NCBI GenBank assembly: GCA_965198065.1
Contig: CBDAON010000004.1
Coordinates: 1,312,001 to 1,376,000, forward strand
Direction of reading: 5' to 3'
Length of the DNA: 64,000 nt
Origin: Longimicrobiales bacterium
GTDB lineage: Bacteria > Gemmatimonadota > Gemmatimonadetes > Longimicrobiales > Gaopeijiaceae
The notes under the pieces were generated by a model, which was not told the origin of the DNA, did not search any database, and saw only the letters and a list, made by a program, of their open reading frames with translations. The first letter of the stretch is position 1. Each line of letters opens with the position of its first letter. Positions 28,017 through 50,764 of this stretch are shown here, piece after piece. The position numbers and the translations under genes are program-made.

Positions 28017-28035
28017 GACGGTCGCTCCCCGGGGC

Positions 28036-28947: not shown

Positions 28948-28964
28948 TAGAGGCTCCTTTCGTC

Positions 28965-30251
28965 TCATTGCCGTGTCCCGGGCCTGGGGACCAGGACATC
29001 GGAGGTGAACCAGATGCGCAGGCGGTGGCCCGCGCGGATCGTGATCGTGGGAAGCCGGTTCAGGAACCGGTCGAGGACCGAGGTGGCGCTCTGGCCGAGG
29101 CCCTGGCCGATGCCAGCCCTCAGGCCGAACGGCGAACCACCGGCCAGCGTGAGTCCGCTCAGGACGCCCACGGCTCCGGCGGCCGCGAACGTGCTGAAGT
29201 AGTGGCGATCGACCTCGTCCCGAAGCGCACCCTCGCCCGCCTGGTTCAGGCCGGTGAACTCGAGGCCGATCCAGCTCCCGCCGGGCAGGAGGAGCCGGTG
29301 GAAGCCGACGGCCAGCCGGCTCTGGTCCTGGTCCTGAACGGCCTGGGCCGTGCCGACGACGCGCGTGCCGCGCGGGATCAGAACCCGTTGGCGGTCGGCC
29401 GAATAGAACGGCACCGAGACCATGGCGAGCACCGGTCCGGGGAAATCGCCCGTGAGCTGCGTGAGAAGCACCGCCTCGAGGAACGAGCCCTCGTGGATCC
29501 GCTCCCAGCCCGGCGGGTCTTCGGGCCGGACGCTCCGGCCGAGCTGAATGGGGCTCGGCGTCCGACGGGAGGCTTGCTGCGGCATCGCGCTTGCCGGCTC
29601 CGGGGCCGGTGCAGCCAACCCCAGAGCTCCGAGCAGCCGCTCTTCGGCTGCCAATTCGTCCTCAAGCGTCGCGACGGACTGCTCGAAGGAGGCGAGCGCC
29701 GCTTGGACCGTGTTCTCGAGGAACGCCACATCCGCGTCGGCCGCATCGCCGGTGCGCGGGCCGCCAGCCTCGGACGACTCCAGAGTCGCGTTTGGATCGC
29801 GGTACGACTGGGCCACGGGAAGGGTGCGGAGCGAGCGTGTTCTTCGCTCCAGCTCCTCCAGCCGAAGCGCCTCCCGAAGCTCCGACTCCACCGCTCCGAT
29901 GCCGAGGGCAGCGGTGTTCGGCGCCTGGGACTCGGCCTGGATCCGGGCCATCTCCTCGGCGGCAGCGGCCTGCCGGCGCTCGAGCTCGGCGCGCGCCCGT
30001 GCGGCGGCCTCCAGAGTCTGCCGCTCGGCCTCTTGCCGAATGCGCGCCTGGAGCGACCTCCCCATCCCGTCGTCGACAGCCTGCGCCTCGGGCAGGGCTA
30101 CGAGAGTGTCGGCTTCCTGGGGACCCGTCATCGCCCAGGAGAAAAGCAGTCCACCGACGAGCACGGCGATCAACACCACGCCCGCCTTCGTCACGATGCC
30201 GCCCGGCAGCGCGCCTTCCGGGGGCCGGACCCACTGCTTCCAGCGGCTCAT
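28965..30251 (-). CDS. virB10: VirB10/TrbI
   Basis: GSFLEAVLLT, LIPRGTRVVG, G.GALRDEVDRHY, PTITIRAGHRL. Confidence 0.9.
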   Translation of the reverse strand: MSRWKQWVRPPEGALPGGIVTKAGVVLIAVLVGGLLFSWAMTGPQEADTLVALPEAQAVDDGMGRSLQARIRQEAERQTLEAAARARAELERRQAAAAEEMARIQAESQAPNTAALGIGAVESELREALRLEELERRTRSLRTLPVAQSYRDPNATLESSEAGGPRTGDAADADVAFLENTVQAALASFEQSVATLEDELAAEERLLGALGLAAPAPEPASAMPQQASRRTPSPIQLGRSVRPEDPPGWERIHEGSFLEAVLLTQLTGDFPGPVLAMVSVPFYSADRQRVLIPRGTRVVGTAQAVQDQDQSRLAVGFHRLLLPGGSWIGLEFTGLNQAGEGALRDEVDRHYFSTFAAAGAVGVLSGLTLAGGSPFGLRAGIGQGLGQSATSVLDRFLNRLPTITIRAGHRLRIWFTSDVLVPRPGTRQ

Positions 30252-31110
30252 CGGAGCGCTTCCGCGGCGTGAACCGCCAGGCAGCCCGCTTGTCGCCGAT
30301 CTGCAGCCACCCGTCGGCCAGTACGTGGCGGGCGACGTACAGCCCGTCATCCGTCAGATCGTAGGCCACGAGCGCCGGTTCCCCGTCCCGGAGCTCATAG
30401 AGCGCGGGCGACTCCTGTGCGTGGGACCTCAGATAGGTGAACTGCCCGTCGTGCCACATCGCCTCGACCAGGAACGGTCGGTCGGCCGCGTCCCCGTCGA
30501 GCCGGTACTCGAACGCGAGACGCTCCGGATAGGCGGCACGGAACTCCTCGATCGCCGACTCAGCCTGAGTCCGGGCCTCCAGGATGCTGGCCTCGGCCGC
30601 CTCCCGGGCACTCCGCGCGGCCTCGGCCGCCTCGGCGGCCATCTGTTGGTAGGCCGCGACCTCGCTCCGCGCGACGAACGCGGGACGGCCGCTGCCTCCA
30701 GAGAGCCGCGCCGCCTCTGCTCCGGACTCTACGCGAACGACCAGATGAGGCGGCCCGTCGCTGTGCTCGGCCACCAGGAACGAGTAGATCCGCCCCGACT
30801 CGCAGACGAGCGCGATGTTCGTCGCCGCGTCCGGCCGCAGGGGTTTCAGGAACGCGACGTTCGCGGCGCCCGCCAGATGCCAGTACTCCGAGTCGCCGAC
30901 CACGAAATCCAGGATGTTCTCATCGGCGGGGAGCACGATCACCGTCGTGTGACGGACCTGCGTCCGCAGCCGGTGGATGCGGTCCTCGCCCTCCTCCGGG
31001 ACCGGCACCCGGAGGAACGCTTGGTCGTCCTCCTGCTGGGCGGTAGCCCCGGCGGGGAGGGCAGCCAAGAGAAGGGCGGTTAGAACGAGGGGTGCCATTG
31101 GTGGTCGCAT
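29662..31110 (-). CDS. virB9: VirB9/TrbG; the recognisable domain ends near 30260 and the ORF then runs on into virB10
   Basis: Signal peptide, TTVIVLP, GDSEYW, FLKP, ATNI, WHDGQFTYL, PALY. Confidence 0.8.
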   Translation of the reverse strand: MRPPMAPLVLTALLLAALPAGATAQQEDDQAFLRVPVPEEGEDRIHRLRTQVRHTTVIVLPADENILDFVVGDSEYWHLAGAANVAFLKPLRPDAATNIALVCESGRIYSFLVAEHSDGPPHLVVRVESGAEAARLSGGSGRPAFVARSEVAAYQQMAAEAAEAARSAREAAEASILEARTQAESAIEEFRAAYPERLAFEYRLDGDAADRPFLVEAMWHDGQFTYLRSHAQESPALYELRDGEPALVAYDLTDDGLYVARHVLADGWLQIGDKRAAWRFTPRKRSDEPLEAVGPAPGRRAAGRHRDEGGRGVDRRARRWTAFLLGDDGSPGSRHSRSPARGAGCRRRDGEVAPGAHSARGRAADSGGRRTGARRARAPAGRCRRGDGPDPGRVPGAEHRCPRHRSGGVGASGGASAGGAGAKNTLAPHPSRGPVVPRSKRDSGVVRGWRPAHRRCGRRGCGVPREHGPSGARLLRAVRRDA

Positions 31111-31116: not shown

Positions 31117-32959
31117 TCAGCTCCTTGCGTTGGGGGTGGGGGTGGGGGTGGGATCGTCTCGGCTCGCGAGCACCTCGAGCGCCCGGCTGAGTCCGTGACG
31201 CTCGACGGCCCGGGCCCGCTCCTCGGCGTCCAATGCGGACGAGGTGTAGAGCCAGTAGCTCTCCGGATCGACCTCGAGCCGGAGCACCGCCGCCCCGTCC
31301 GGGCGGCGCAGGTAGAGCTCGCGTTTGGGGATCAGGCCCCGGACCTGGGCCAGCTCCGACTCGTTCAGCCGGAACAGCGCTCCGACCTCGTCGGGGAGCT
31401 CCGGGTTCGCGAGGAACAGCTTGGTCGGGATCGACTCGAGGAGCGCCGCCGCGCCCGGCGTGGCCGTGACGTCCACCGCGGACTGGGTGGCGAGGATCAG
31501 CGCGGCGTTCTTCTTCCGCCACGTCTTCGCCGCCTCGGCCAGGTAGCTAAGCACCGCCGGGTCCTGCAGGTAGCGCCAGGCTTCGTCCACCACCATCAGC
31601 TTCAGCCGCGTCGCCTCGGACGGATCCTCCACCTCGAGCCGCATCCGCTCGAGCAGATAGGAGAGTGCCGCGTCGCAGAGATCCGGATGCTCGACCGCAC
31701 CCGCCAGATCGATCACCTGCCAGTCGGCGAACTCGAGGTCCGGCGCCCCGCCCGCCGGGTTGTCGAAGTAGGCGCCCCACGCGCCGCCTTGGGTCCAGCG
31801 GCTCCATGCCGGCCACGTCGCGGACGGAAGCGAGCTTGCCAAGACGCTCAGCGTGCGCCGCTCCGGCTCGAACGCGTAGAGGTCCTCGATCCGCGCCCGG
31901 ATCTCGCTCGTATCCGCCCCGCTCGCTTCCCAACCGCCGAGCTTCAGGAGCCGGAGCACCCAGCCGGTCAGGAACTGGAACGTCCGCGTGCCCGCCGGCA
32001 GGGCGAACGGCTGAAGCCGGAGCGTCGGCTCCGCCTCCCCGGGCGAGAGCTCCAGGTAGCGGCCCCCGAGGAACCGGGTCAGCCAGCGGTAGGAGCCGCC
32101 CAGGTCCAGGATCAGGACGCGCGGGTCGTACCTGAGAGCTTCGACCAGCAGGAAGTTGAGCGTGAAGCTCTTCCCCGAGCCGGTCGCGCCGAGCATCAGC
32201 GTGTGGCCTACGTCGCCGGCAAACAGGTCGTAGTGGTACGCCGTACGCCACGGGGTCTCCAAGACCGCGAGCGACTCGCGACCGAGATGCTTGCTCTTTG
32301 CCGTGCCCCGGGGCGGCCCGAAGAGCGGCGCCAGGCTCGCCGCCACACCGGCCGACACGAACACCTTCCGCACCTGCCGCCCACGCGGCTGGGCCGGCAG
32401 CCGCGCGAACCAGGCCGGCAGCTGGCCGTAGCCCTCACGGATCACCTTCGCGGCGTGCGCGGCGAACAGCCGACGCAGGTCGCCGTCCACGCGTTCGATG
32501 CTTCCCAGCTCGCCGTGGAGGGCCACGGTCAGCGTGGCCTCGCCGTAGCTCACCCCGTCCGCTTCCAGCTCGACCAGCGCCTCGCCCAGCCGGTCGGACT
32601 CGGTCGCCGCGGCCGAGTCGACCATGGCGGCCGCCGTGCCCTCGGTCTCCTGCACATGCGCCATCATCGAGTAGCGCCTGGCGAAGTAGTGGCGCTGCGC
32701 GCCACGGATCCGGCGCCTCGCCGCCTCCATCGCCCACGGCCGCCACTCGAGCGAGACCGTCATCGCCGCGTCCAGGCAGTAGAGCTCCTGGAGCAGGTTG
32801 GCCCGGGCCTGCCCAGGCGGGGACAGAAGCGAGTACAGGATCACCGGCTGGCCGTCGAGGCGCAGGTGCCCTCGCTCCGCCTCGAGTTCCGAGAGGGCGA
32901 GCCGCCAGTTCATACCGCTCCCCGTCGCGCCGTCCCACACCGTGCCCGGACGGTTGATC
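31117..32959 (-). CDS. virB4: VirB4/TrbE ATPase, 3' part (gene split by element 2)
   Basis: GHTLMLGATGSGKS, DLGGSY, VVDEAW, RKKN, ATQS. Confidence 0.9.
32949..32959. repeat. att core, left end of element 2
   Basis: GACGGTTGATC, identical at 37251-37261. Confidence 0.85.
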
Positions 32960-33311
32960 TACTGTCTATCCTGTTGCTATTTCGTCATAAGTATATGACT
33001 TATAGTTATTTATGGATGTAGTAGTTTTTGGTCCGACTCGTTTATATCGTATGTGATCCCGTATAATTGGCGTGCGATTACACGGGAACCTACGGTACGT
33101 TCGCGGACCCCGTGACGGGTTCGACCTTCGGCGTCGCGCGGGGCTGAGAAAGACCACGCAGATGACGATGCCCCCCTGAGCGGCGGCCAGATCCGCAATG
33201 GACCAGAGCCCGCCCGCCAGTAAGACCATGAGAATCGCGACGTCGATGGCAAAGAGGGGGCGATTGTATACCCCGTGCACGTCACCGGAAGGCCAGTTAG
33301 CATGAGGACCC

Positions 33312-33500
33312 ATGGAGCACCCCCCAGGAGACCGCCAAGCCGCCAGCTTCGGACGATTCAGAGCCAGCGTGGGCGATCTAGAGGTCCACGGACGGCCATA
33401 CCCGAGAATGCAAATGCTGACCGTTCAAGAGATCCTAGACGGGAGGCGGTTCGACACGCCTAGCGTCGTGGGCCGTGGATCGTCTCAGACCGTCTTCGGG
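33312..33500 (+). pseudogene. C-terminal fragment resembling DNA methyltransferase/restriction fusion proteins
   Basis: YPRMQMLTVQEILDGRRFDTP motif with no upstream catalytic domain. Confidence 0.4.
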
Positions 33501-33987
33501 ATCGCAGACGGAAAGGCACAGCAAGTGCTCAAGATTGATGGACTAAGGCGGACCGGTCTCGCTATTGGGTCACGCAACCGGGAGACACCCACCCAGCGAA
33601 AGGCAGCGTGGCCGAGCTGATGCGGGCGCTTGCGAAGGAACTCGAGGTCCCCATCTACGTTGACGACACCAGGGAGACCCTCGCGCTGAGGCTCGCCCGG
33701 GCGAACCCCGAGCGCTGGAAGGAATTTATCACGGAGGAGCACCTAACCGAGTCTGGAGCTGCGGACTCGACACCCAGGAGTGGACCCCATGCTAAGCCCT
33801 GACTCCGGGCTGCAAAGCCCATAACTTGTTATCGCGAAGTTCTTCGCTAAGCTCCTCAATGTTGATGATGCGACGAGACCCAGCTACTTTTACCACACGG
33901 GCAGCTGCGGACCGGTGAGCCACGTCGCAGACAGTAGTTCCCGCACCCAGGTCTAGCGTCCTCCAACCTACGGAAGAAGGCTACACG

Positions 33988-34644
33988 ATGCGTCTCGCAC
34001 CTCATCTCCTCCAGCAGGTTTCTCCACTTTTCGCACTTGCGCTTTCCGTCAGCCTACTCGTCCCGGGAAGTGTCCAAGGGCAGACGAGCCTGTCACTCCA
34101 GGCCGGCGCCAGCCTCGCGACCCTCGGAGGGAGCGACGTAGACAGCGCTGATTCTCGAACCGGCATCAAAGTTCGGGCATCGGCTATCCTGCCACTTACG
34201 ACCAGCCTTGGTTTGCAGCTTGGGGCTGCCTATGCAGCAAAGGGCGCGACCGAGCAGGAAGATGGTGTGGATTTGGCGTTTGATCTCGACTACCTGGAGA
34301 TACCCCTGCTTCTGAGGCTCAGCCCTGCCGTCGCGGGCACCCTATCGCCGCACTTCACCATCGGCCCGACACTCTCCTTTCGGGTGGCCTGCAACGTGAG
34401 CGGAAAGGCAGAGGGCTTTGAGATTTCAGTTGACTGCGATGATGCAGAATTTGCGGACTTGAGCTTGAAGACGATTGACTTTGGGGCAGTGGCCGGTGCC
34501 GGTCTAGACATCGCAACGCCGGGTTCCCTGTCCGTGTCGTTGGATGTCCTCTACAACTTTGGTCTGGCGTCCATCTCCGAGTCGGACGATGTGAAGAATC
34601 GCGCGTTCTCGATCCTAGCGGGCATCACGTTCCCCATAGGATAG
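33988..34644 (+). CDS. Outer-membrane beta-barrel (porin family) cargo
   Basis: Signal peptide, LDYLEIPLLL, DFGAVAGAG, terminal GITF strand. Confidence 0.85.
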   Translation: MRLAPHLLQQVSPLFALALSVSLLVPGSVQGQTSLSLQAGASLATLGGSDVDSADSRTGIKVRASAILPLTTSLGLQLGAAYAAKGATEQEDGVDLAFDLDYLEIPLLLRLSPAVAGTLSPHFTIGPTLSFRVACNVSGKAEGFEISVDCDDAEFADLSLKTIDFGAVAGAGLDIATPGSLSVSLDVLYNFGLASISESDDVKNRAFSILAGITFPIG

Positions 34645-35539
34645 CAACCGAGTTCGAAACACAACCACGCCGTGTCGAACGGGCGAGCTGACGGTCGAGC
34701 TTACGAATGAGGCGCGACTAGGGCCACGACGATTGAGATGAGCCACTTCCGTCCCGTTTTCATTGAGCACTCCCCATTTGGCATTTGGGGCCTTGACACC
34801 CGGGACGTGGTAGTGCCGGGCCGTTTGTCGCCATGACCCGTTCTCCCGTCCGCATAACCCCCTTAACTGCCTCTTATGACTGCATAACTTGCGAGCCACT
34901 GAGCGCGTGTCAATATCGGAAACGGCTACTTATGGTAGTCGGTAAGTAACCGTTAACACCATCAAATTGTTGGACTTCGGTGGCTCCCTAACTCCGCTCC
35001 CCACGAGCGCGGGCCACCGCTATCCGGCGGCACCAACACACACGGCAGGAGAATGCAGGGATGCGGTGGACCCCGGCGTTGACAACACGAGTGTGTGGAG
35101 TGTCTATGGTAGGTTTGCTCGATGGCTGGCCGAGGGCTGATCGCCCGTGGCACGGCCTGGCAAACCGCACGACTCGCCCAGGTGCGCTTCCGATGAGAAG
35201 CCGACCCCTCACGCCACCACTGGGATGTGCAAGACACATCAGGGGTTGATGCACATATGGCCCCAGTCGTGATGTGCAGAAGCAGGGCTCGCTATCCTAT
35301 TGGGGCTGCGGCAGTTGCGCGCGGCGGCGCCCGCCCGGAGACCGCGAACGGGACAGCGCGCGGGTTAAGGGGAGCGACCCCCGGATTCGATGCCTCGATC
35401 GGCATCGCGGAGGGTTGGCATGTGCACACCCATGCCACCCTCCGCCGGGGGTCGCTCCCCTCCAGCAATCCCTAGCGGGAAGGCCATCAAGCGCCGCTGC
35501 GAGCGCGGCGTATCAACGAATCCGGCCGCCGGTCGCGGC

Positions 35540-35730
35540 TTTTCACCAGCTAGGTGGCTCGGCAAGTCGTCCCAGTGAGGTCGGCGTCGGCGCTCGACCA
35601 AGCCCGAAACTGCCCCGAGGTGGTTGAGGTTGCCGCCGATGCGCGCGACCTGCCGGCCGCGCTCGCACGCAAAGCGGCCGCCGGGGCAGTCCAGGTCCGC
35701 GTGCGCGCCATGGCCTGCCGGAGCGCGGGC
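35540..35730 (-). pseudogene. Decayed mobC-like gene
   Basis: RQVARIGGNLNHL resembles the MobC LxxIGxNLNQ motif. Confidence 0.55.
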
Positions 35731-35736
35731 GTCCAG

Positions 35737-35840
35737 GGGATCGAAGGGGGCGGAGCCACCCTCGCCAGCCCCTGCCGGGGACCCGCGAAGCGTGGCCACA
35801 AAGGGTAGGCTGGCTTAGGCACCGCTTAGGCACCGTAAGG
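35737..35840 (-). other. oriT-like block of element 2
   Basis: Reverse strand AGCCAGCCTACCCTTTGT...AGGGGCTGGCGAGGG..GCTCCGCCCC.TTCGATCCC as at 23249-23308; tandem GCTTAGGCACC x2 at 35813-35834. Confidence 0.5.
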
Positions 35841-35911
35841 TGTTCTCAGCCAGCTCTGCGGACGCCTCCGAAACGCCTCTCCGGGCACCGCCCGGAGCAG
35901 CGGGCCAAGGT

Positions 35912-37147
35912 CTATCTCTCGCCCGCGAGATAGGCCGCCCAATCGTCCATCAGCCGGCGCCTGCGCTCGAAGAGGTCCGAACGCGCATAGGCCGCTTCCA
36001 CCTTGTTGCGAACCGCATGGGCCAACGCGGCCTCGGCGACCTCACGCGGTGCGTTGGAACACTCGCCGCACCAGTCCCTGAAGCTCGAACGAAAGCCGTG
36101 CGGCACAGCCGCGATACCCAGGTCTCGAAGTAGCGTGGAGAGTCTGCTGCCGGGAAATGCGCGGCCCTCCGACGACGGGAAAACCAGACCGCTGCTGCCG
36201 CCGAGCGTCCGCGCCTCCTCGAGGATCTCCATGGCGCGCCCGGACAGCGGCACCCTGTGCGGGCGATGGGCTTTCGTGCGTTCGGCGGGAACCGTCCACT
36301 CCCGAGCCTCCAGGTCGATTTCATCCCACTGTGCCAAGCGAACCTCTCCCGAGCGGGCCGCCGTCAACACCAGGAACTCGAAGGCGAGTTTCGTGGCCGG
36401 GTAAGCGTGCGACTTCCGCACCATCTCCATCGCGCCCGCGACCTTCGAGTGAGGCAACGCGCGCATGTGCCGGATTACGGCTTGCTGTCGGCCAAGCGCT
36501 TGACCGAGCACATCGCTGGCGGGGTTGTCCGGCCGAAGCCCCATCGCCACCGCCCACTTCATCACCGCCCCGATGCGCTGGCGCACCCGCCGGGCCGTCA
36601 CCTGCTTGTCGTGCCAGATCGGTGTCAGAACCGCCAGAACGTCGGCTGTCGTTATCTCGCCGACCGGTCGATTGCCCAGCTGTGGGAATGCATAGACGCG
36701 CAGGCTCGAGACCCAGTCCTGCGCATGCCTGGGGCTGCGCCAGCCCGGCCGAAGCTGTTCCAGAACACGGGCGGCCGCCTCGGCGAACGTGGGCATGTCC
36801 CGGACCTTGTATCGCTCGGTACGCGGATCGCCGCCCGAGCGCGCGATCTTGCGGTTCATGAATGCCTTCTCGCGCGCCTCGGCCAGCGATACCAGCTGGT
36901 AGCCCCCGAGCCCCAGCGTGCGGTTTCGACCCTGGATCCGCAGACGCTGCTCCCATCGGCGCGCGCCGGATCGGTCCACGCGCAGATAGAGGCCGTTCCC
37001 ATCGCAGTAGTATCCGGGCTTGGCGCTGCGCACGAAGGCCGCGCTGAGTGCGTTGTGCGGCCGCCTGCCTCGGTGTTTGGGCAAATCCAATTCGGGAGTC
37101 CCCGTATAAAGTATCGTATGTTGTATACGGGAACATAGTGGACACAC
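35912..37147 (-). CDS. P4-like tyrosine integrase of element 2 (true start may be TTG at 37090)
   Basis: DGNGLYL, LTAARSGE, HRVPL, PHGFRSSFRDW, ALAH, AAYAR. Confidence 0.95.
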   Translation of the reverse strand: MCPLCSRIQHTILYTGTPELDLPKHRGRRPHNALSAAFVRSAKPGYYCDGNGLYLRVDRSGARRWEQRLRIQGRNRTLGLGGYQLVSLAEAREKAFMNRKIARSGGDPRTERYKVRDMPTFAEAAARVLEQLRPGWRSPRHAQDWVSSLRVYAFPQLGNRPVGEITTADVLAVLTPIWHDKQVTARRVRQRIGAVMKWAVAMGLRPDNPASDVLGQALGRQQAVIRHMRALPHSKVAGAMEMVRKSHAYPATKLAFEFLVLTAARSGEVRLAQWDEIDLEAREWTVPAERTKAHRPHRVPLSGRAMEILEEARTLGGSSGLVFPSSEGRAFPGSRLSTLLRDLGIAAVPHGFRSSFRDWCGECSNAPREVAEAALAHAVRNKVEAAYARSDLFERRRRLMDDWAAYLAGER

Positions 37148-37194
37148 AGCGACACTGCAACCGGGAGTATCCTACATAACTCACTGTGGTAACT

Positions 37195-37869
37195 CTAGTT
37201 ATATGATATTACTAGACATGTATGGATCGTATTGGAATCTATGTGTAGCAGACGGTTGATCAGCTCGGAGAGGAGACGGGAAGCTTCGGCGGGCTCGAGC
37301 ATCTCGATCGGCGTGTGCTCCTCCACGAGCGCCCGGCCCGCGTCCACCGTCGAGCGAAAGCGGGCAGCGGCGGCCTCGATCTCGGACCGCAGGTAGGTGG
37401 GCGCGCCCCCTCGGCGGCGCTTCCACCACTGCGTGAGCCGGGAGGCGCTACCCGATGTGGGCCCGTCTGCCACCGTCCGGAGACGGGGATCGTGCGACCA
37501 GACCAGGTAGGCCCCGAGCTGCTGCACCCGCCCGGCCAGAAACGCACTCCGCTTACGCTGCGAGACCGCTACGATGCCGGAACCCTCGTCGTCCGCGGCC
37601 TCGGGCGAGGCCGGGCGCCGGAGTAGATAGAAGTAGAGGCGCGTGTCGGCGTCCAACCCCGAAAGCAGACGCTGCCAGCGGCCCAGCACGCGGTCGATCT
37701 GCTCGGGCGAACGCCCATCGACCACCGCAGGCTCCAGCCGTCCGGCCGCGATCAACTCGCCGGACCGGGTCAGGCACGTGCGGCCGTCCTCGAGCCAACC
37801 CCAGTAGGGCAGCTCCTCGGCCAGCGAGCCGGCCGCCTCGTGGTCTCTGAGCTCAGCGGCGATCCTCAC
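37195..37869 (-). CDS. virB4: VirB4/TrbE, 5' part (truncated by element 2)
   Basis: GTG overlaps the virB3 stop; SLAEELPYWG...LSELINR, then reads into AT-rich element DNA to a stop. Confidence 0.85.
   Translation of the reverse strand: MRIAAELRDHEAAGSLAEELPYWGWLEDGRTCLTRSGELIAAGRLEPAVVDGRSPEQIDRVLGRWQRLLSGLDADTRLYFYLLRRPASPEAADDEGSGIVAVSQRKRSAFLAGRVQQLGAYLVWSHDPRLRTVADGPTSGSASRLTQWWKRRRGGAPTYLRSEIEAAAARFRSTVDAGRALVEEHTPIEMLEPAEASRLLSELINRLLHIDSNTIHTCLVISYN
37251..37261. repeat. att core, right end of element 2
   Basis: GACGGTTGATC. Confidence 0.85.
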
Positions 37870-38168
37870 CGCCCGCTCCGGATCACGAGATGCCACGGCT
37901 CTTCGGCCCACTTGCCCGGGTCGAAACGCGACGGGTAGCGCGTCCCGGCGCGGAGCACGCCAAGCATGTCCGGGTCCTTGCGGCCGGCCAGCCATCCGGC
38001 CCCAAAGCCGACCGCGAACACCACGCCGCCCGTCACGAGCGAAGCCGTCGCGTTCCACATCGCGAGCCCGAGCGTGGCGACGAGGAGAAACCCCCTACGC
38101 TCCACGCCCAGGATCGTGAGCGGACGGTTCAGCGCCGCATAACCGGCCCAGCGCCTCAGACCCCTCAT
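37866..38168 (-). CDS. virB3: VirB3/TrbD
   Basis: ALNRPLTILGVER, two TM segments, KDP motif. Confidence 0.85.
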   Translation of the reverse strand: MRGLRRWAGYAALNRPLTILGVERRGFLLVATLGLAMWNATASLVTGGVVFAVGFGAGWLAGRKDPDMLGVLRAGTRYPSRFDPGKWAEEPWHLVIRSGR

Positions 38169-38461
38169 CAGAAGAGCCAGGCCAGGAAGTTCGCCGCGCC
38201 CATCGCCATCCCGAGACCGAAGATGATCCCGGCCAGCGTCCGCTTGCTCCCGCCCTCGCCGAACGCGAACATCAGCCCGCCCACCACGATCGCGATCAGA
38301 GATAGCCCGCGCGCGATCGGACCCGTGAACTGCGCCTGCAGCTCGTTCACCGCCTCCACCCACGGGCTCGTCCCCTGCGCCCACAGCACCCCGGGGGACA
38401 GCAACCACAGCGCTACCGTGGCCCAGGCCGCCGCTCGTACCGTCCTAATGAAAGGTTGCAT
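38168..38461 (-). CDS. virB2: VirB2/TrbC pilin
   Basis: Signal peptide, SPW..., FTGPIARGLSLIAIVVGGLMFAFGE. Confidence 0.88.
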   Translation of the reverse strand: MQPFIRTVRAAAWATVALWLLSPGVLWAQGTSPWVEAVNELQAQFTGPIARGLSLIAIVVGGLMFAFGEGGSKRTLAGIIFGLGMAMGAANFLAWLF

Positions 38462-38496: not shown

Positions 38497-38988
38497 TCAC
38501 TCGGCTTTGCCGCGGCTCAACGCGATCTGCTTGCGGATCCACTCGTCCACCTCCTCCTCGATCCAGCCGACAGCGCGCGCGCCTAGCTGGACGGGTCTGG
38601 GGAAGGACCCCTCGGCCAGCCGCACGTAGATCGTGCTCCGCCCGAGCCCCGTGCGAGCTTGCACGGCCGGGAGCCGCACGATGCGGATCGGCACCTCCAT
38701 TTCCTGCACCATGGTTCTCGTCATCTCTCTGCCTCTCCGTTCTCTCTGGGATGAATCCCGGAGCCGGTCGCTCCGGGAGGAAACAGGGTCCACACCGGCC
38801 TCGTCGAAGCCTTCCATGAACGCCAGGAGCTGATCGACCGTCGCGAGCGTCGGGGAGCGGCCATGGCGTAGCTCACGCACCAGGTTCGGATCGCCAACCG
38901 CCTGGCGGCCAAGCGTCGCCGGCCCCACTCCCGTGCGCTCGAGGAACGCCTCCACTCGCGCCATGAAAAGCCCCTTCAGCGTCTCCAT
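38497..38988 (-). CDS. AlpA-family regulator with an extra N-terminal HTH
   Basis: IVRLPAVQARTGLGRSTIY..FPRPVQLGARAVGW; N-terminal GPATLGRQAVGDPNLV HTH. Confidence 0.88.
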   Translation of the reverse strand: METLKGLFMARVEAFLERTGVGPATLGRQAVGDPNLVRELRHGRSPTLATVDQLLAFMEGFDEAGVDPVSSRSDRLRDSSQRERRGREMTRTMVQEMEVPIRIVRLPAVQARTGLGRSTIYVRLAEGSFPRPVQLGARAVGWIEEEVDEWIRKQIALSRGKAE

Positions 38989-39394
38989 GCGAGGGACGAT
39001 GAAGGCACTTGCGCAACTACGTCAATCCGTAGGATTTAACCGACGTTCTTAGTGGATCTATTGGAATTGAAGTGGAACAGCGGCCTCTCCGACCGCTCCG
39101 CCAGCGGGGCGTCGAGCGGGTCGGGGAGAGGCGCTCCGAGGGTGGGGAAAAACGTCAATCGGGATCGGGCGAGACACGGCCGACCCGGGGGCGGTTCATT
39201 CTCCGGCAGTACACCCGGCATACTGCTCTGAAGGGTGCGTCTATACGAGCCAAGGGCCGGGCCGAGGGGCTCTAGAGCGCGATAATTGAAATCGAGTGCC
39301 TCATGGCGGGGCCGATTGGCGATGGAAGCATCGGACAGGCCGGATAGACGACAGCACTTGACCACCATGTGCCGAACCGTCGACGGGGGCACCT

Positions 39395-39780
39395 ATAGAC
39401 GCCAGCGCGGCCTCAAAGACCTCGCGTGGATGGTTCGTCTGCTCGGCCGCCCAGTCCATCAAGCTGGAACGCAAAACCGTGCGGCACGGCCGGCAGCTCT
39501 AAGTCCTCGAGCAGCCCCGACAGTGCCAGCCCCGTTCGACACGCTTTCCGCGCACACTCGGGAACACCAGCGGGTTCTCGTCGCCGAGCTTCGGTGCCGT
39601 GTCGAGGACGTGCCTAGTGCGGCGGCGCAGCGGAATCCGGTCGTCTTCGTCCACGTGGCCGGGATGGTCCACGGGCCGTTTAGCAAGTGGAGGCGGACAA
39701 GGCGGAGACCGTGTCAGGCTTGATCGGAGGGACGCCGGTGGGGATCCGGGGCGTCCCACCGCGGCGAATCCGACCAGAGG
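39395..39780 (-). pseudogene. Degraded P4-like integrase remnant
   Basis: WTIPA, RIPL, PLVFPS, AVPHGF, DWAAEQTNHPREVFEAALA in several frames. Confidence 0.75.
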
Positions 39781-42058: not shown

Positions 42059-42137
42059 CTAGGGTAGGGAGGAGTCCGAAGTGTCGAGGGCCTCTTCTCC
42101 GGCCCTAAGTCGGTCCAGATAGTCCGCCCATTCTTGG
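42059..42137 (-). pseudogene. 3' tail of a P4-like integrase gene (target of element 3)
   Basis: QEWADYLDRLRAGEEALDTSDSSLP* resembles the C-terminus of P4-type integrases. Confidence 0.6.
42111..42137. repeat. att core, left end of element 3
   Basis: CGGTCCAGATAGTCCGCCCATTCTTGG, 25/27 identical to 52127-52153; perfect IHF consensus at 42160-42172. Confidence 0.85.
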
Positions 42138-42216
42138 ATCAGCTGCGCCAATATCATTATAAACGATTGATTAAAATATACTTATCGTAAGCAAAACCGG
42201 AGGCTCACACACGGAG

Positions 42217-42777
42217 ATGGAACCGATGAAGAAGGCTCGCCGCAGTAAGAAGCTCCAGGAGGAACGAGCGCAACGAGCGGCCGGTATGGTTCTCATTGTA
42301 CTGTTCGGCTTGCTCGTAGTCCATGGCTGTACTCGCGGTGACGACCGCGAGATACAGGCCGCACTGGACCTCGAAGAGCAAGGAGATTTCGCCGAAGCCG
42401 CGCGCCTGTTTCGCGAGCTGGCCGATCAAGAGAATGCAGAGGCGCAGTACGCTCTCGGGTACAGGTATGATGCCGGTATCGGCGTCCTGGAAGACGACGC
42501 CGAGGCATTGCGCCTAATATCCTTGTCAGCTGCACAAGGGTTCGCCCCTGCTCAACGCTCCATCGCGCTTAGATACGCCACCGGGACAGGTGGCGTGGGT
42601 GAGAGGGACTTTGTACTCGCGCACATGTGGTTTAACCTGGCCTCGGTCAACGGAAGCGATTTTGCATTCGACGACAGGACCGACATCGAGCTGTCCCTGA
42701 CAGCCGACGAACTCGAACGCGCTCTGGAGCTTGCCCGTCGATGTCTGGACTCGGGCTATCAGGAATGCGGGCTGTAG
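42217..42777 (+). CDS. Sel1-like repeat protein with N-terminal membrane anchor
   Basis: AEAQYALGYRY..G.GV, AAAQG..AQ, AHMWFNLA. Confidence 0.85.
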   Translation: MEPMKKARRSKKLQEERAQRAAGMVLIVLFGLLVVHGCTRGDDREIQAALDLEEQGDFAEAARLFRELADQENAEAQYALGYRYDAGIGVLEDDAEALRLISLSAAQGFAPAQRSIALRYATGTGGVGERDFVLAHMWFNLASVNGSDFAFDDRTDIELSLTADELERALELARRCLDSGYQECGL

Positions 42778-43790
42778 AAATAGCCGATGTCCGACCTCGG
42801 GTTGGCTGGCGCTCTCTCCGACCCTAGAAAAGAGCACAAACCCGAAGGGGACCGGTGTCCCCTCGGGGTCTGCGATCATCGAAGCCCTGGCATGGCCTGG
42901 CGTGGCTCGGCAGGGCAAGGCAGGGCAAGTAAGACGGGACGCGGCAGCGTTCGACACGCTTCCCCCGCCCTACGGGATCGCTAGTCGAACAGACTCGGTG
43001 GGGCCGCCGCTTGGAGCTCCCCTCGGGGCGTGTCCCGGAATCGGTGGGCTGCGCGAAGAGCTCTAGCTGACGTGGCCTAATAGCTCCTGCCTGACCGGCT
43101 AGCCGCGTCCCCGTGGCGGATCACAAGATCGGCGCACGACTCGCACACGAGTCACTCGGCCCAAGCCGCGCCGCTCGGCCGAGGCTGCGGGGACGTGGTG
43201 AGTGGCCTCCGGTCGCGTCGCGGTCCCCGGGCCAATCTTCCCGTCGTCACGTTATCTCGGCATCCGTTCATCCGTTCGCGGCTAGGGAGAGCCCAGGGAA
43301 TCCGTTTCGCTCCGGTGGAAATAATGGTGGGAACAGCGCCACTCCTAAATCCGTAAAGCCTTTATAGTAAATGGATTAGTAGTGCGCGGAGAAACAGACA
43401 AAACGGCCTACGGCAGATCACTGATCGTTCCGATCCGACAACGCAGCCGAAGCGTCTCTCTGAACCGACCCGCATCGTCCAACCCGAATCAGGTTGGAAG
43501 AGAGTCCATGTCAGCGGCAGGCGTGAGTCAGGCCATGGCTTTGCGTTCATGCTCGGCCAGGATTCGGGGAGTGCCTCGGTTACCGAACTGTCCCGGATCG
43601 AACGCACTTCGATCGACCGTGATCGAGGCTTTCCTCAGGCCCTCCGGGAGAAGCTCGATCGGGCGCTGGCGGAGCCCGATCCGGCTGTGGGACGTGGTTG
43701 ACCTCCTGGAATCTCCCCTCTCTTGCCGTGCTTGACACTGCACGGAACCGGCTCCTCAATGTAGCTGGTATGGACACCCTGACGGCCCTG

Positions 43791-43945
43791 CACCGGCTGC
43801 CTCGAATCACGATCCGCGCAGGCCGCCGCCTTCGCACCGGGCATACCTCCGATGTTCTGATCCCTGGGCCCGGGACAGGCCATGGGACGACAAGAGACCG
43901 GCATGCGTTACCGAGCCCTCACTGCCGCCCTGCCGCAGGGCCAGA
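43791..43945 (+). pseudogene. Diverged copy of the virB10 3' end / trbJ 5' junction
   Basis: HRLPRITIRAGRRLRTGHTSDVLIPGPGT versus NRLPTITIRAGHRLRIWFTSDVLVPRPGT; nucleotide similarity continues into the trbJ start. Confidence 0.75.
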
Positions 43946-44100
43946 TGAACGCCTCCGTGGGCCGAGTACTCGCCTGTCAGGCCGTCGAGCAGGCGAACCG
44001 GATTTGCCGTGGTGGTCAACAATCCTGTGTGCCCAATCACATTTCGAACCGGCTTATATGAAACCGCATCTTTCCAGAGAGATTTATTCTTGCTCTTCGC

Positions 44101-44552
44101 ATCCTGGCCAAGGTCCCGCATCGCCTGCGCAAGCGTGTGGCGCGCGAGGTTGCCGCCGTCTTCCGGGCCCCCGGGCTCGCTAAGGCGAAGAAGCGCCTGG
44201 CCGAGATCACGGCGCGCTGGCACAACGAACTCCCCGAGGCAATGAGGGTGCTCGAGCGGGGCTTCACGGCCGCCATCCAGTTCTACGCGTTTCCCGAGCC
44301 CCACTGGGCCAGGCTACGCACCACGAACAGCCTCGAGCGCCTGCACACCGAGATCAAGCGTCGAATCCGGAGCGCCGGCGCCTTCCCTGACTGAGCCAGT
44401 GCACTCCGCCTCATCACCGCGGTTGCTCTGAGGACTACTGCGGTCTGGAGCGAGCGCCGTTACCTGGACCTCTCACTCCTCGAGCCCAAGGAGGTCGCCA
44501 AGGCAGCCTAACCGAAGCATCGAGGAGCTTCCTCTCACTTTTGGACTTGACC
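44101..44552 (+). mobile_element. IS256-family 3' remnant (nonsense codon at 44392)
   Basis: RTTNSLERLHTEIKRR; near-identical to 54471-54930 on the opposite strand; terminal GGACTTGACC. Confidence 0.88.
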
Positions 44553-44600
44553 CTCGAGGCTCGGTCCTTCGGCGGTTCTGCGACTCGACATCATGGTCCA

Positions 44601-45467
44601 TCAGACCGGTTGCAGGTTGACGAACTCCGTAAAGTCGTCCGTACCATCGGACTGGATCGCATACCGGAATCGGAGTTCATCTCTGTCGTCGCGACGCCTG
44701 GCATTCTTGATTGCGAGCACTTGAATGGCTGCGTAGAAGCCCCCCGTGTTGCGCAGTACGACGATTTGGCCGAGGGATGGTTTCCGAGAGCGAGACGTGT
44801 AGTCCAGCGACGCGGCACACTCCACCTGCGAGATCGACCTGCATCCGCAGGCCAGCCCGACGCCGTTGATGGACGGGGGATCGTTGTAAACATGAATCCT
44901 AGTGTCACTCGCACTAGACCACTTAGTTTCGAATTCCAGCACTCCAAAGCCGATGACGTAGCGCCCGTTGTAGCTGCTGTAGTCGAATACGACTTCGCCG
45001 GTCGGCGATGTCATTCTTGGCGGCGGTACCTGGGACGCTTTGCCGGCGAAGGGCTGGACGCCCAGTTTGTTGGCGATCATTGTCGCGAGTTGCGCGGGCG
45101 TGTGCTTCCGGGCGCATTCGTAGATGACGTCCGTCGGCAGACCGGGCACCCGCGTGTCATCGAAGCGAACGGGAAGGATGTACTCGTCCTTCTCCTCGAT
45201 CATGCGGCTAAGGGCCGACCGCCTTTCATGATTGGGCCAAGCCTTTGACACATAGGCTTCGGAAATGAACATTACGACGTAGGCGCTCTTTTCGGCGAAT
45301 GCTTCATGGAATGCTTCCGCGCCGCGCCGGCCCCAAAGACCGACCTTTTCGAAGCCGTCGTAGAAGACGTCGATGGATCGGCTCTGGAGATGCCGTGCGA
45401 CCTCTTCCACATAATCCCGCTGTTCCCCGGCAAAAGACAGCGCTACTTGATACTTCGGGCCGGTCAT
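44601..45467 (-). CDS. TIR-domain protein with a beta-rich C-terminal domain
   Basis: VALSFAGEQR, VFYD, FISEAY, WPNHE (putative catalytic E), ILPVRFD. Confidence 0.88.
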   Translation of the reverse strand: MTGPKYQVALSFAGEQRDYVEEVARHLQSRSIDVFYDGFEKVGLWGRRGAEAFHEAFAEKSAYVVMFISEAYVSKAWPNHERRSALSRMIEEKDEYILPVRFDDTRVPGLPTDVIYECARKHTPAQLATMIANKLGVQPFAGKASQVPPPRMTSPTGEVVFDYSSYNGRYVIGFGVLEFETKWSSASDTRIHVYNDPPSINGVGLACGCRSISQVECAASLDYTSRSRKPSLGQIVVLRNTGGFYAAIQVLAIKNARRRDDRDELRFRYAIQSDGTDDFTEFVNLQPV

Positions 45468-45656
45468 CGGACTCCCTCTCTACCGACCATTCGTCTGCGG
45501 CCGGGTCTGTCGAAGGGCTTCGCCGCCATTGCCCCTGGTTGGAAGGTAGCACGGCGCGTAGCGCGGAGCGCCATATCGTGCCACTCCCGATCAGCCGGTG
45601 AGGATAGGTGATCACCCGACCTTGCAGCTCCGGAGACATCCAGGTTACGCACCTGG

Positions 45657-45810
45657 TGAGTTGACGGGGCCGATTTGAGTTGAGCGGCCTCCGCTCCGGA
45701 TCGACTCGCGATCCGGAGGCCAGGTGAGATGAAGCTGAGCAAGGAGCAGGTGAGGGTGGCGAAGGGGCTGGCAGAGCGGGGCAGATCGGTGCGGAGGCTT
45801 GCTGGGAGAT
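45657..45810 (+). mobile_element. Short IS remnant (IS21-like left end)
   Basis: TGAGTTGA repeated; GGTGAG RBS, then MKLSKEQVRVAKGLAERGRSVRRLA HTH start that breaks off. Confidence 0.4.
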
Positions 45811-45998
45811 CTTCTCCTGGAATATGGACGGGTTGATGATCCCTAGGAGAACAGTTGGAGAAGAGCGGGGGCCAAGCTACGCGTAACGAAAGGCTGGGTG
45901 AGCGGTCCGTCGAACGGGGTGCCGGTCTGGGAACTGTACGTGTCCCACGCTGTAGAGCTAGCGATGCAGTTCAGACATCCACCAGGGATGCTCAGCAA

Positions 45999-47375
45999 AT
46001 GTCGAACGATGTGAATTCCCGCCTCTCCGATCTACTGGCCAACCTCCGTGAGTCCCCTGAAGTAGAAGTCAAGGGCTGGCTCGACCTGGAGAACAACAAC
46101 CAGCACAAGGCACGTCTCGCGAAGGCAACTCTTGCGTTGGCGAATCATGGTGGTGGCTGGGTTGTGTTGGGATTCAAGGAGGTTGATGGGACCATGGTGG
46201 AGGCTGAAGACTATCCAGCCACGCTCAACCCATATAACCAGGATCTGATCAACGGAATCGTTCGACGGTATTGCGAGCCAGAGTTTCATTGCACGGTGCA
46301 CCTGGTTCCGCATGGAGGCAAGATTTTTCCGGTGGTGGAGGTACCGGGTGGGCATGACGTTCCTGTGCGTGCCCGACGGGCAGGGGCCGATGAGAAGATT
46401 CTTCAGATGAATGCCATCTATATTCGCAAGCCGGGCCCTCGTAGCGAGCCACCGCAAAGCGGACAGGAATGGGACCGTCTCCTAGCTCGGTGCCTGAGCA
46501 ACCGAAGTGATGAACTGCTTGGCCATATTCAACGCATAGTGAGCGGGGCCGCGTCGCAAGAACGGCTTGCATCCGACAACGAGCGCCTTGATGAGTGGAT
46601 TACCACATGCTTCGATCGTTGGTCTTCACTGATCGATCAGTTACCGCCAGAAGCCATAGGGCCTAGGTTTTCATACGGCTGTTACAACTTCGCGTATGAG
46701 ATCGTGGGCGATGCGCGGGAGACTACGCTTGCCCAGCTACCGCATGTCTTGCAACGAAGCGTTGTCCACCTTACAGGATGGCCACCGTTTTGGTTTCCAA
46801 CACGAAAGGGAATCGCACCATACCCTGCGGATGGTGCCGTGGAATGCTGGATAGGCGGAGACACCGATGCAGAGCCGGGGGCACATGCTCCGGATGATTC
46901 GGATTTTTGGAGGATCAGTCTGGATGGATATGCCTTTTTGTTAAGAGGCTATCGCGAGGATCAAGGTGATCTGCAGTTCGCAGGGCAAGGAACCGCGGAG
47001 CCCGGAACGGTTTTCAGTGTCACAAAGCCGGTATGGCGCGTTGGCGAGACACTCCTGCAGGCCCAACGCCTAGCAGAGAATCTGTTCGAAGGCCCTACAA
47101 CAATTCGATTCTCTGCTAAGTACACTGGGCTCAAGGGACGATCATTGGTGAGAATAAATGGAGGAAGGCATATAATGAGAGGATTGATCTCCCGTCAAGA
47201 AGCAATCACCCCAAAAACTGTGACTATAGACTCAACGACTATCAGTACCAGTCTGCCTCAAATAGTTCATAGAATTTTGTCGCCACTATACGAGTTATTC
47301 AGTTTCTTTCAGCTCCCAATGGACCTAGTCGTGGAAGAGCTAGACTGTATGCGTAAGAGAGGCATTACTAGCTGA
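45999..47375 (+). CDS. Schlafen/AlbA_2-domain protein
   Basis: RESPEVEVK, ALANHGGGWVVLGFKE, IYIRKPGPRS. Confidence 0.85.
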   Translation: MSNDVNSRLSDLLANLRESPEVEVKGWLDLENNNQHKARLAKATLALANHGGGWVVLGFKEVDGTMVEAEDYPATLNPYNQDLINGIVRRYCEPEFHCTVHLVPHGGKIFPVVEVPGGHDVPVRARRAGADEKILQMNAIYIRKPGPRSEPPQSGQEWDRLLARCLSNRSDELLGHIQRIVSGAASQERLASDNERLDEWITTCFDRWSSLIDQLPPEAIGPRFSYGCYNFAYEIVGDARETTLAQLPHVLQRSVVHLTGWPPFWFPTRKGIAPYPADGAVECWIGGDTDAEPGAHAPDDSDFWRISLDGYAFLLRGYREDQGDLQFAGQGTAEPGTVFSVTKPVWRVGETLLQAQRLAENLFEGPTTIRFSAKYTGLKGRSLVRINGGRHIMRGLISRQEAITPKTVTIDSTTISTSLPQIVHRILSPLYELFSFFQLPMDLVVEELDCMRKRGITS

Positions 47376-47424
47376 TGAGAATACAAAAGAGGTTGCAATC
47401 CAAAGCTGATCCTGAGCGGTGGCC

Positions 47425-48456
47425 CTAGAGCGAGCGGTTCTCCTGGTCGAAGAACGTATCGCCATCGTACGAGGAGAGCTTGAACACTTCGAATCCGGAC
47501 TGGAGTAGCCCAAGTAACTTGGTCTTGGCTTCGCCTTCGCTCATAGAGTAGTTGACTACATGCTCGAGCTTCTCCCGCTCGACAGGCAAGTGCTCGACAG
47601 AAAGGTCTCGGAAAGTGTGCCAAAGGACGGAGAGAGCCTTGAGCACTTCAGAGGTGTGCCAGTCGAAGAGGATCGCGGCCTGCTCCTTAAGGTAGTCTCG
47701 CTCGAAGTACTGCTTGAACTGGGGCAAGGCCAGGTTGAAGTCGAGTTGAAAGTAGCCGTCGAACGAGTAATTCTCTTCGTTGCGATCCCGAGTTAGATGG
47801 TCGCGAGGGATGCCCCACGGGCTGTCGTCGTCGAGAAGGGGCTCTGGGAATACGAAAAAGGTGAGTTCAAGGGACTTGGGTAGACTCCGGTAGTCCTCCC
47901 ACACGTCTCGGTGGGCCCTGACCGGCTTTCGATCGAATTGAAGCGTCGCGCATGCCCCCGGAAGGTCAAGATCGAGGCGCATTCGATACGACTGCGCATT
48001 TTCGTGGAGACGTCGAGCTAGCTCTTCATTGAAATGGGGACTTCGTTCATGGAGTTGGTATGACTGCTTTCCCAGTAGCGTCGTGACTGACCGAGCCAGG
48101 TAGAACTTCGCGTAATACGTCGTGATGTTGAGCCAATGAAGCAGGCCGCCTTCCATCAAGTTGCGGGCTGCTATGTAGTTGTAGAACCCCTTGTAGAAGT
48201 GGAACAGCGCCTCATGGAGGATGATCGGACGAACCGCGACGAGCTCATCCCCTTCGAGCGAAAGCTCGATCCGCCCGTTGCTCGATGGCGTGTCATCGAG
48301 GCGTAACGCATCTCGTGTCGCCCTCGCCAGGTTCAGTTCACTTGGGCGTCTCGGCAGCTTTTTTGCAGGCCAGTAGTCGGTGTTGGCGTAGAAGCTTTGG
48401 AGATCATCTTTACTTGTCATGCGAGCCCTTAATTCAGACCACAGGTAACGCGCCAC
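47425..48456 (-). CDS. Hypothetical protein, HEPN-like
   Basis: YYAKFYLARS and RNEENY resemble HEPN-type motifs; start at 48456 or 48420. Confidence 0.6.
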   Translation of the reverse strand: MARYLWSELRARMTSKDDLQSFYANTDYWPAKKLPRRPSELNLARATRDALRLDDTPSSNGRIELSLEGDELVAVRPIILHEALFHFYKGFYNYIAARNLMEGGLLHWLNITTYYAKFYLARSVTTLLGKQSYQLHERSPHFNEELARRLHENAQSYRMRLDLDLPGACATLQFDRKPVRAHRDVWEDYRSLPKSLELTFFVFPEPLLDDDSPWGIPRDHLTRDRNEENYSFDGYFQLDFNLALPQFKQYFERDYLKEQAAILFDWHTSEVLKALSVLWHTFRDLSVEHLPVEREKLEHVVNYSMSEGEAKTKLLGLLQSGFEVFKLSSYDGDTFFDQENRSL

Positions 48457-48545
48457 TGTGCCGGCCAGGCATGTCCGCTAACGGATCTTGGCAGACGTGT
48501 CCGATTGTTGCACTTCAAACTTGATCTCAAGAGTCCTGCCGGCGA

Positions 48546-49370: not shown

Positions 49371-49582
49371 GCGGCTCCAACCGTCTTCATGGGACTCCTA
49401 ACTTAAGATTGTGCCGTTCAAGGCATGTCTTCTAACGTTCAGAGGTTGCCAGCGCGGCTCCGTCCGCGCTTCACCGGAGCGAACGTAGTGAGCGAAGGCG
49501 GCAACCGCATTGTTATCGGACGGCGCCACCTGATAGCCAACCGCACCGAAAAAGTGCGCGCTGATCCCACAGGGATTCTCGC

Positions 49583-50357: not shown

Positions 50358-50764
50358 CATGGACCGACAACGAATCCGAACACGAGACGAGAAAATCGCG
50401 GATCGATCCACGCACGAATCGACCTACTTTCGCCAGAGAGCATCCGGCGATGGGGAACCATGGCTGCGAGAGAGATGGTCTGCCATGCCGCCGATCAGCT
50501 AAGGGTCGCACTCGGCGATCTCAAGTTACATGCAGGACCGCTCCGGCTCAGATTCAGCGGTCGGGAAGTAAAGGTGACACCGGGGCTCCTCAGGTTCAGA
50601 TCCTTTCGACGGGGCCTGGGTCGGAAGGCTTCCCCGTCAAGCGGACCACGCATAGTTGGACTCCGGCGCTAGTGTTCGCGCGCGCTTTCTTCGCTCCACG
50701 GGGACGCTCGGGCGATTGATCTCTGCGGATATTAGTCGCGCCGTGTTGAGACAAAGACGGCAGA

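Follow-up and report, generated by a model that had tools for sequence, protein, structure and literature searches.

The window (the whole 64,000-nucleotide stretch of DNA that was analysed) lies in a Longimicrobiales genome, here called G000, and contains an ICE with an integrase at a tRNA gene, a VirB-type T4SS and a coupling protein, in which both virB4 and virB8 are split. Read from tRNA-Ile, the minus-strand order is integrase, xis candidate, ardC, virB11, virD4-like gene, virB8, virB6, trbJ-like gene, virB10, virB9, virB4, virB3, virB2 and a gene that fuses a Cro-like to an AlpA-like domain. A reading made from the sequence alone had placed a two-HTH AlpA fusion first in the T4SS operon, upstream of both interruptions, and this placement was borne out: the fusion is a 163-aa ORF whose stop codon lies 36 bases ahead of the virB2 start codon; virB3 and the 5' portion of virB4 come next. 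The features of the ICE are as follows.

12900..12973, plus strand: tRNA-Ile, the ICE insertion site
13031..14194, minus strand: ICE tyrosine integrase, without a P4 arm domain
14194..14577, minus strand: ICE xis candidate, abutting the ICE integrase (HTH_17, E 0.03, below cut-off)
15862..20141, minus strand: virD4-like coupling protein, virB11 and ardC
21335..21804, minus strand: virB8 3' part, codons 67-222 (PF04335)
26777..26994, minus strand: virB8 5' part, codons 1-74, hydrophobic segment included
27006..30251, minus strand: virB10, trbJ-like gene and virB6
29662..31110, minus strand: virB9 (PF03524)
31117..32958, minus strand: virB4 3' part, codons 204-814
37252..37869, minus strand: virB4 5' part, codons 1-206 of the intact 814-aa allele
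37866..38168, minus strand: virB3 (PF05101)
38168..38461, minus strand: virB2/trbC pilin (PF04956)
38497..38988, minus strand: cro-alpA fusion ORF, 163 aa, the operon-head gene directly before virB2
38518..38688, minus strand: AlpA/excisionase-like winged-helix domain of the fusion, aa 101-157 (PF05930, 8C3T and TorI matches)
38722..38724, minus strand: internal in-frame ATG (Met89) behind a purine-rich SD-like stretch; gives a 75-aa AlpA alone if used
38800..38988, minus strand: XRE/Cro-like HTH N-domain of the fusion, aa 1-63 (fold matches ClgR and C.AhdI at Z 7-8)
38989..39128, minus strand: upstream region common to other ICE copies (putative promoter)
39394..39651, minus strand: decayed P4-type integrase relic, the fourth P4-type integrase in the window (39-43% to intact integrases by tblastn)

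The earlier suggestion of a separate ICE xis candidate beside the integrase holds for position, the candidate adjoining the integrase in other ICE copies too, but less well for identity, given its sub-threshold family match. The window copy has no CI repressor gene, and its virB9 is one base short near the 3' end, the frame continuing for ~200 codons over virB10. In 10 of 10 other copies virB9 stops normally, and the overrun is possibly a real lesion, possibly a sequencing error. The displaced 3' half of tRNA-Ile was found only on contig C3 (C3:45793-45837), so the missing second att on the window contig reflects either a rearrangement or an assembly break. Two ORFs of the conserved ICE core (20404-21291 and 14951-15838, 295 aa each) are relaxase candidates; Pfam, PHROGs and NCBIfam returned no relaxase or other family for them, and one of the two may be an unrecognised relaxase. 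Elsewhere in the genome, ends of the ICE family lie inside P4-type integrase genes at two different codons (C4:451521-452408 and C3:55265-56488; L013, L027), and at C4:511787 and 2685154 the 3' half of an integrase gene comes after conserved sequence of the ICE far end.

The sole Pfam domain of the fusion is Phage_AlpA (PF05930; aa 101-151, E 1e-20, 73.4 bits vs a cut-off of 21), and PHROGs placed excisionase/regulator families on the same C-terminal part. An AlphaFold model gave two folded domains (aa 1-63 and 101-160) joined by a low-confidence linker (67-99). When 48,161 chains were compared with the C-domain, the best was the GIsul2 excisionase 8C3T (Z 9.4, rmsd 0.9, 57 residues), which was also the only chain at Z>=8; by sequence, the domain matched both 8C3T and TorI. 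Full RDF activity of TorI requires each of Y28, P37, R45, A46 and W48, as tabulated in Table 1 of PMC3509656, and in our alignment all of these positions are identical in the fusion, while F22 is replaced by leucine and S9, F15, M17 and others also differ. Judged from this alignment and the predicted structure, the AlpA domain resembles a functional excisionase. For the N-domain, no family was found in Pfam or PHROGs. Its structural matches were XRE/Cro-type HTH folds at Z 7-8, a common level, and in the ESM Atlas it fell with unnamed phage clusters at 0.90; in related ICEs, the gene for this domain faces a CI/S24 repressor.

At 163 aa the fusion is larger than stand-alone AlpA/TorI-type RDFs of ~70 aa, and split copies in the genome suggested that it might be a frame accident. 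A homologue search, blind to separate short forms in which cro and alpA are unfused, returned 232 matches; among the query and the best 120 of these 232, 103 of 121 proteins measured 140-185 aa and aligned over their full length, most at 49-96% identity. A family conserved end to end and recurrent at ICE heads rules out the frame accident. Met89 is kept in 83 of the 103 full-length homologues. Among ICE-head fusions, an ATG stands at this position in 17 of 20, and 15 of those 17 have an SD-like motif, a count that is partly chance as the linker is purine-rich. The conserved methionine and its motif point to a 75-aa AlpA that is likely also made separately from Met89. Estimates of dN/dS (NG86; saturated, so that only their ranking is meaningful) were 0.57 for the Cro domain, 0.83 for the linker and 0.58 for the AlpA domain. 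The region upstream of the fusion contained no strict sigma-70 match, and a promoter/terminator scan there was empty; upstream homology ends near 39130, with no CI gene beyond. The integrase relic at 39394-39651 was considered as AlpA's own partner, since the spacing fits an int-cro-alpA arrangement, but its DNA matches the clade of the A- and C-type integrases described below and not the integrase found in that arrangement, and this partnership is unlikely.

Three elements with P4-type integrases lie in the window, two of them inside the transfer operon.

21786..26795: element A in virB8, 5.0 kb, with 19-bp direct repeats at 21786 and 26777
21949..23181, plus strand: integrase of element A, opposite to the operon
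32949..37261: element B in virB4, 4.3 kb, with 11-bp direct repeats at 32949 and 37251
35912..37147, minus strand: integrase of element B, co-oriented with the operon, with the P4-type domain set (PF13356, PF22022, PF00589; PRK09692)
42111..52140: element C, with repeats at 42111 and 52127 and TIR, Schlafen and Sel1 cargo
50765..52000, minus strand: integrase of element C

Elsewhere in the genome there are intact alleles of virB4 and virB8, in which the window halves meet exactly at the 11-bp and the 19-bp repeat, respectively; taken with tyrosine-recombinase chemistry, this indicates that precise excision of A and B would rejoin virB8 and virB4. The integrases of A and B, which together with the flanking repeats are as expected of an IME, are full-length ORFs with a catalytic region of the R-H-R-H-Y type, the start codon of integrase B being uncertain. 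As the sequence-only reading had stated, none of the three elements was found to encode an alpA or xis gene: six-frame genome scans gave no match to PF05930, PF12728 or TIGR01764, Pfam scans of 89 and of 82 small ORFs detected none, a profile built from 94 AlpA domains found nothing, and neither an alpA nor a primase family occurred among the ORFs. The fusion gene itself lies outside A, B and C. Element A has an oriT-like stretch (24506-24600), in which 95 bases are 85% like a stretch preceding the mobC gene of a sister element elsewhere in the genome; a sister element encodes MobC and an MbeA-like relaxase (E 5e-33, below cut-off). Element B carries an OMP beta-barrel cargo gene, a mobC relic (35614-35765) and a nic-like motif at 35808. 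The nic label of this short motif follows ColE1.

Element C is located upstream of the operon, where it leaves the transfer genes uninterrupted. Its repeats (42111-42140 and 52127-52156) resemble the final codons of a gene for a P4-type integrase, and a sister of C at C4:380407 sits at the end of the integrase gene at 381733. The outer flank of C is an IS3-like element, with the same junction at C4:451.4 kb and C3:60.4 kb, and the two flanks of C mismatch. At 44601-49370 the cargo genes encode a Schlafen/AlbA_2 protein, two TIR_2 proteins and a 331-aa product without an assigned family, a content suggestive of anti-phage defence. Beyond C, selO, IS256/IS3 fragments, a RepA fragment and a RelB antitoxin gene occupy 52757-54205 and 60291-62478. 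Exact matches to the IHF consensus lie at 26761-26773 and 42148-42160, near the far-end cores of A and C, with 22 exact sites on the 2.87-Mb contig. In the 3' part of virB8, the in-frame ATGs come from the left end of element A (21808-21835), and the product would be without the membrane segment. Two related, secreted-looking proteins with no family assignment are encoded at 25721-26311, in A, and at 41118-42014, between alpA and C (42% over 144 aa).

We then placed these elements among their relatives, using an integrase set of 80 of 199 matches from 20 genomes and 15 from G000. Judged by flanking genes, with target labels assigned by tblastn adjacency, insertion sites comprised virB4 at codon ~204 (7 loci), two other virB4 sites, virB11, virD4, the trbJ-like gene, ardC and virB8, as well as a site beside an unnamed ORF before virD4. 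In a FastTree phylogeny of 126 integrases, those of A, B, C and the elements in ICE genes formed one clade (support 0.998) with subgroups by site, and an integrase type found adjacent to alpA fell outside it. In the ten elements for which both gene halves delimit the ends, the repeats measure 7-20 bp; nine of these ten contain the nic-like motif, vs 0.03 expected per 5 kb. No AlpA was detected in any of 14 delimited clade segments (A, B, C, the second B, eight bounded on both sides and two on one side), and an alpA other than that of an ICE head lay within 17.5 kb downstream in only 10 of 95 integrase loci. The sequence-only reading had held element-encoded excisionases to be evidence against it: an alpA of their own was found in four embedded sister elements (L113, L127, L087 and L099, in virD4 and trbJ-like genes; the L113 integrase belongs to the clade), so that the objection applies to the family, and in none of A, B and C. 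Across 201 genomes of the order, AlpA was present in 25 of 25 genomes with a clade integrase vs 19 of 176 without, an association among kin genomes, with at most nine candidates scored in each, that may be explained by kinship or by general mobile-element load. A comparison of alpA-bearing ICE heads against integrase genomes (18 of 25 vs 1 of 5; Fisher p 0.047) was left unused, as another query gave 2 of 5 and kin genomes are not independent.

We favour, tentatively and at a little below an even chance, a model in which the AlpA of the ICE head acts in trans as the RDF for embedded P4-type elements that have none, as one of several shared sources. Induction of the operon, presumably via a CI/Cro switch whose CI gene related ICEs have and the window copy lacks, would make AlpA first, excision of the embedded elements would then be favoured, and virB4 and virB8 would be rejoined. 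The active form would presumably be the 75-aa internal-start product or a free C-domain, which would bind the att arms of the elements. Once excised, the elements, with their oriT-like sequence and the MobC and MbeA-like relaxase of their sisters, might exit via the T4SS. AlpA would belong to a shared pool for which element-borne AlpAs elsewhere in the genome could substitute, and the ICE family probably acquired alpA behind cro from integrase-linked cro-alpA modules and kept it where parasites are common. There is precedent for such exchange: in Vibrio cholerae, three RDFs are described as each promoting excision of two islands (PMC7721734), and GIsul2 AlpA supplied from a plasmid is reported to have raised mobilisation (PMC9376610). 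Counting against supply in trans, the Aux3 island is described as locked in by RDF loss although the strains have other RDFs (PMC7721734).

The distribution of alpA among ICE heads bears directly on this model. The closest cro-alpA loci belong to Longimicrobiales or Gemmatimonadota. In a set of 87 loci (L075-L161, the first 87 of 159) there were 59 cro-alpA pairs. Of these, 21 stand at the head of a virB operon (20 fused, 7 with CI), 15 lie behind a P4-like integrase of a second type and 4 converge on such an integrase; neither of the latter groups contains a fusion. When loci were picked by virB2 (one locus in 30 of 32 positive genomes), alpA lay directly upstream in 24 of 30, cro and CI alone in 5 and neither in 1. 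The CI/S24 gene is present in 7 of 21 heads among the cro-alpA loci and in 13 of the 30 picked by virB2; CI accompanies 8 of 24 alpA-bearing heads vs 5 of 5 cro-only heads. A homology break ~140 bases upstream of the cro start is common to the window copy, a second copy and L075. One relative, G006, is 100% complete on a single contig. Its 20 ICE-integrase matches and 5 virB2 heads are accompanied by no AlpA and no P4-type integrase that the searches could find. The persistence of the ICE in this one genome suggests that the family does not need AlpA for itself.

These heads also accommodate another reading, to which we give a real but minority share of probability: the fusion would be an ordinary operon-head regulator or a tolerated passenger, with Cro acting in a CI/Cro switch and AlpA modulating the same promoter, and the elements would excise at a low RDF-free rate (B helped by read-through of its co-oriented integrase) or be locked in. 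The presence of CI beside many ICE heads and the near confinement of the fused form to them (20 of 21, vs 0 of 15 beside an integrase) are in line with this, as are the autorepressor role described for ICEclc AlpA (PMC7423338), the published case of RDF loss as a lock (PMC7721734) and the retention of alpA by relatives in which virB4 and virB8 are intact. It is less readily squared with the 5 of 30 ICE heads and all G006 copies examined that do with cro and CI alone, with an internal start that is widely kept, with the retained RDF-critical residues, and with an AlpA-less clade that is numerous, occupies many sites and has intact repeats. It is very doubtful that AlpA acts in excision of the ICE itself, whether as a further directionality factor or as an activator of the xis-int pair: AlpA is the sole member of a named excisionase family on the ICE and the xis candidate scores below cut-off, but the ICE integrase lacks the P4 arm domain and has the xis candidate as its fixed neighbour, and G006 combines its 20 ICE-integrase matches with no AlpA.

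The model of an ICE-head AlpA acting in trans was further confronted with the rest of the source genome, which has three large copies of the ICE, many P4-type integrases and eight alpA loci. In one ICE copy (C4:452-469 kb) all T4SS genes are intact, a divergent CI/S24 repressor gene is present and alpA is frameshifted. A further copy, which lies across contig ends, retains its fusion and virB8 intact and carries element B again in virB4 and a different element in virD4. Five other intact alpA ORFs occur in the genome, four of which are 74-76% identical to the window AlpA domain; the four element-end alpA ORFs are intact and lie behind degenerate cro genes, and three of them are within ~330 bases of the same end sequence as that of element A. 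More widely, the identity of the window AlpA domain to integrase-adjacent AlpAs (median 71.5%, n=16) exceeds that to the AlpAs of other ICE heads (median 60%, n=21); identities are used here because support in the AlpA tree was low. A separate int-cro-alpA module, always unfused and with an integrase 43-45% identical to that of A, recurs in the relatives (L085, L116, L119, L154 and 11 more), and a CI-cro-alpA form with a convergent integrase is found at L084, L118, L119 and L121; these modules are a possible source of the ICE-head alpA.

It is in this light that a second alternative, which we hold to be distinctly improbable, has to be read: AlpA would be needed in trans but come from element-borne copies, at the far end of sister islands or beside their integrase, the ICE fusion being too divergent or Cro-blocked. 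The element-end ORFs close to A's end sequence, the 15 loci of int-cro-alpA modules among relatives and the 4 of 25 integrase-positive genomes that have AlpA with no virB2 match agree with it. Against it, the upstream cro of the element-end copies is degenerate, and their 74-76% identity to the ICE AlpA domain far exceeds the 46% given in PMC3014918 for the V. cholerae pair VefA and VefB, which makes exclusion of the ICE copy hard to expect.

Signs of activity were sought for the elements themselves. Compared between the two ICE copies, element B differs by two one-base indels and no substitution, against 35 mismatches in 3.8 kb of flank; the mismatches are clustered, and the longest clean run outside B is 1,269 bases. 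The identity of B fits recent excision and re-insertion of an RDF-less element, and duplication with patchy recombination would also explain the pattern. In public Logan contigs, no excision-circle junction was found among the 15 of 168 and the 15 of 32 joints listed in two comparisons. Empty-site joints are present in X4 and X5; these are not proof of excision, as intact alleles can give them. Contigs with B cargo were deeper than those with A cargo in X1 and X2, consistent with two copies, depth not being copy number. The 8-mers common to the region upstream of alpA and the six att arms were at chance level only.

Collectively, the proposal of excision in trans by the ICE AlpA is supported by the excisionase-like domain, a clade that is mostly AlpA-less, the G006 comparison and published RDF cross-talk, and it is tempered by five other intact alpA ORFs and by excision not having been seen. 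Its corollary, that excision repairs the ICE by rejoining virB4 and virB8, is much less likely. Removal of A and B would not clearly yield a working ICE, because the copy is without CI, its second att is off the contig and virB9 overruns its stop; the other alpA ORFs make AlpA supply redundant, the intact ICE copy means that the T4SS could be complemented without repair, and the defects listed leave the window copy perhaps not revivable. We accordingly think it improbable that this copy is restored to a working state. A broader evolutionary claim may be entertained as possible, though less likely than not: a Gemmatimonadota ICE family would have taken over its parasites' excision switch, the clade having mostly given up its excisionase and the ICE encoding a Cro-fused copy first in the operon, so that induction reassembles the operon and both leave. 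The fusion is a concrete candidate trigger for the excision of elements nested in ICE conjugation genes, and split virB genes in such genomes are not necessarily dead. The elements extend helper-embedded parasitism from prophages to T4SS operons, and their tyrosine-integrase clade has shifted site specificity many times within one operon. Should the fusion prove to be a regulator, what remains is a documented mass colonisation of an ICE by locked-in islands.

Our literature search, mostly of open-access journals, found neither an ICE-encoded RDF for embedded elements nor the A/B/C integrase clade. The closest parallel is provided by the HE-PICIs (PMC10111431), which are described as likewise having one tyrosine-integrase clade with site subclades that repeatedly disrupts essential genes of the helper, so that excision must restore the gene, and as leaving abandoned copies in truncated helpers. 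As presented there, HE-PICIs occupy prophage late genes, are co-oriented and encode their own alpA and primase, whereas the present elements have an ICE as helper, are inserted in either orientation and mostly lack alpA, which the helper encodes. Mobilisable elements that disrupt conjugation genes are also described in streptococci, where IMEs lie in traG, maff2 and snf2 of Tn5252-family ICEs (PMC5357655, PMC5704250). That induction of conjugation excises such IMEs and restores the module was already hypothesised in 2017, with no trigger named in that account (PMC5357655); these IMEs use serine integrases, in contrast to the P4-type tyrosine integrases in T4SS core genes and the candidate ICE-encoded trigger described here (PMC5357655, PMC5704250). 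The present system resembles HE-PICIs and these IMEs in its workings and is a member of neither group.

For the factor itself, a close case is offered by VefA, VefB and VefC of V. cholerae, AlpA-related RDFs that work on the P4-type integrases of islands other than their own within one cell; the islands in these reports are separate, with no nesting, gene repair or coupling to a transfer operon (PMC3014918, PMC7721734). GIsul2 AlpA/Xis (8C3T, PMC9376610) and KplE1 TorI (1Z4H, PMC3509656) have the same winged-helix domain and key residues as the fusion, and are described as small stand-alone proteins, encoded by the element they excise and without a Cro-like N-domain (PMC9376610, PMC3509656). 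In ICEclc, as here, alpA is the first gene of an inducible ICE operon; its 70-aa product is reported to repress its own promoter and to be dispensable for activation of the integrase promoter, and the operon is regulatory rather than one of virB genes, with neither a fusion nor embedded elements in that description (PMC7423338). Finally, SGI1 and MGIVflInd1 share with the model proposed here the timing of mobilisable-element excision by a helper. In those systems, as reviewed in PMC5704250, the activator of the helper turns on the element's own RDF gene, whereas in the model that we favour the helper would supply the RDF protein.
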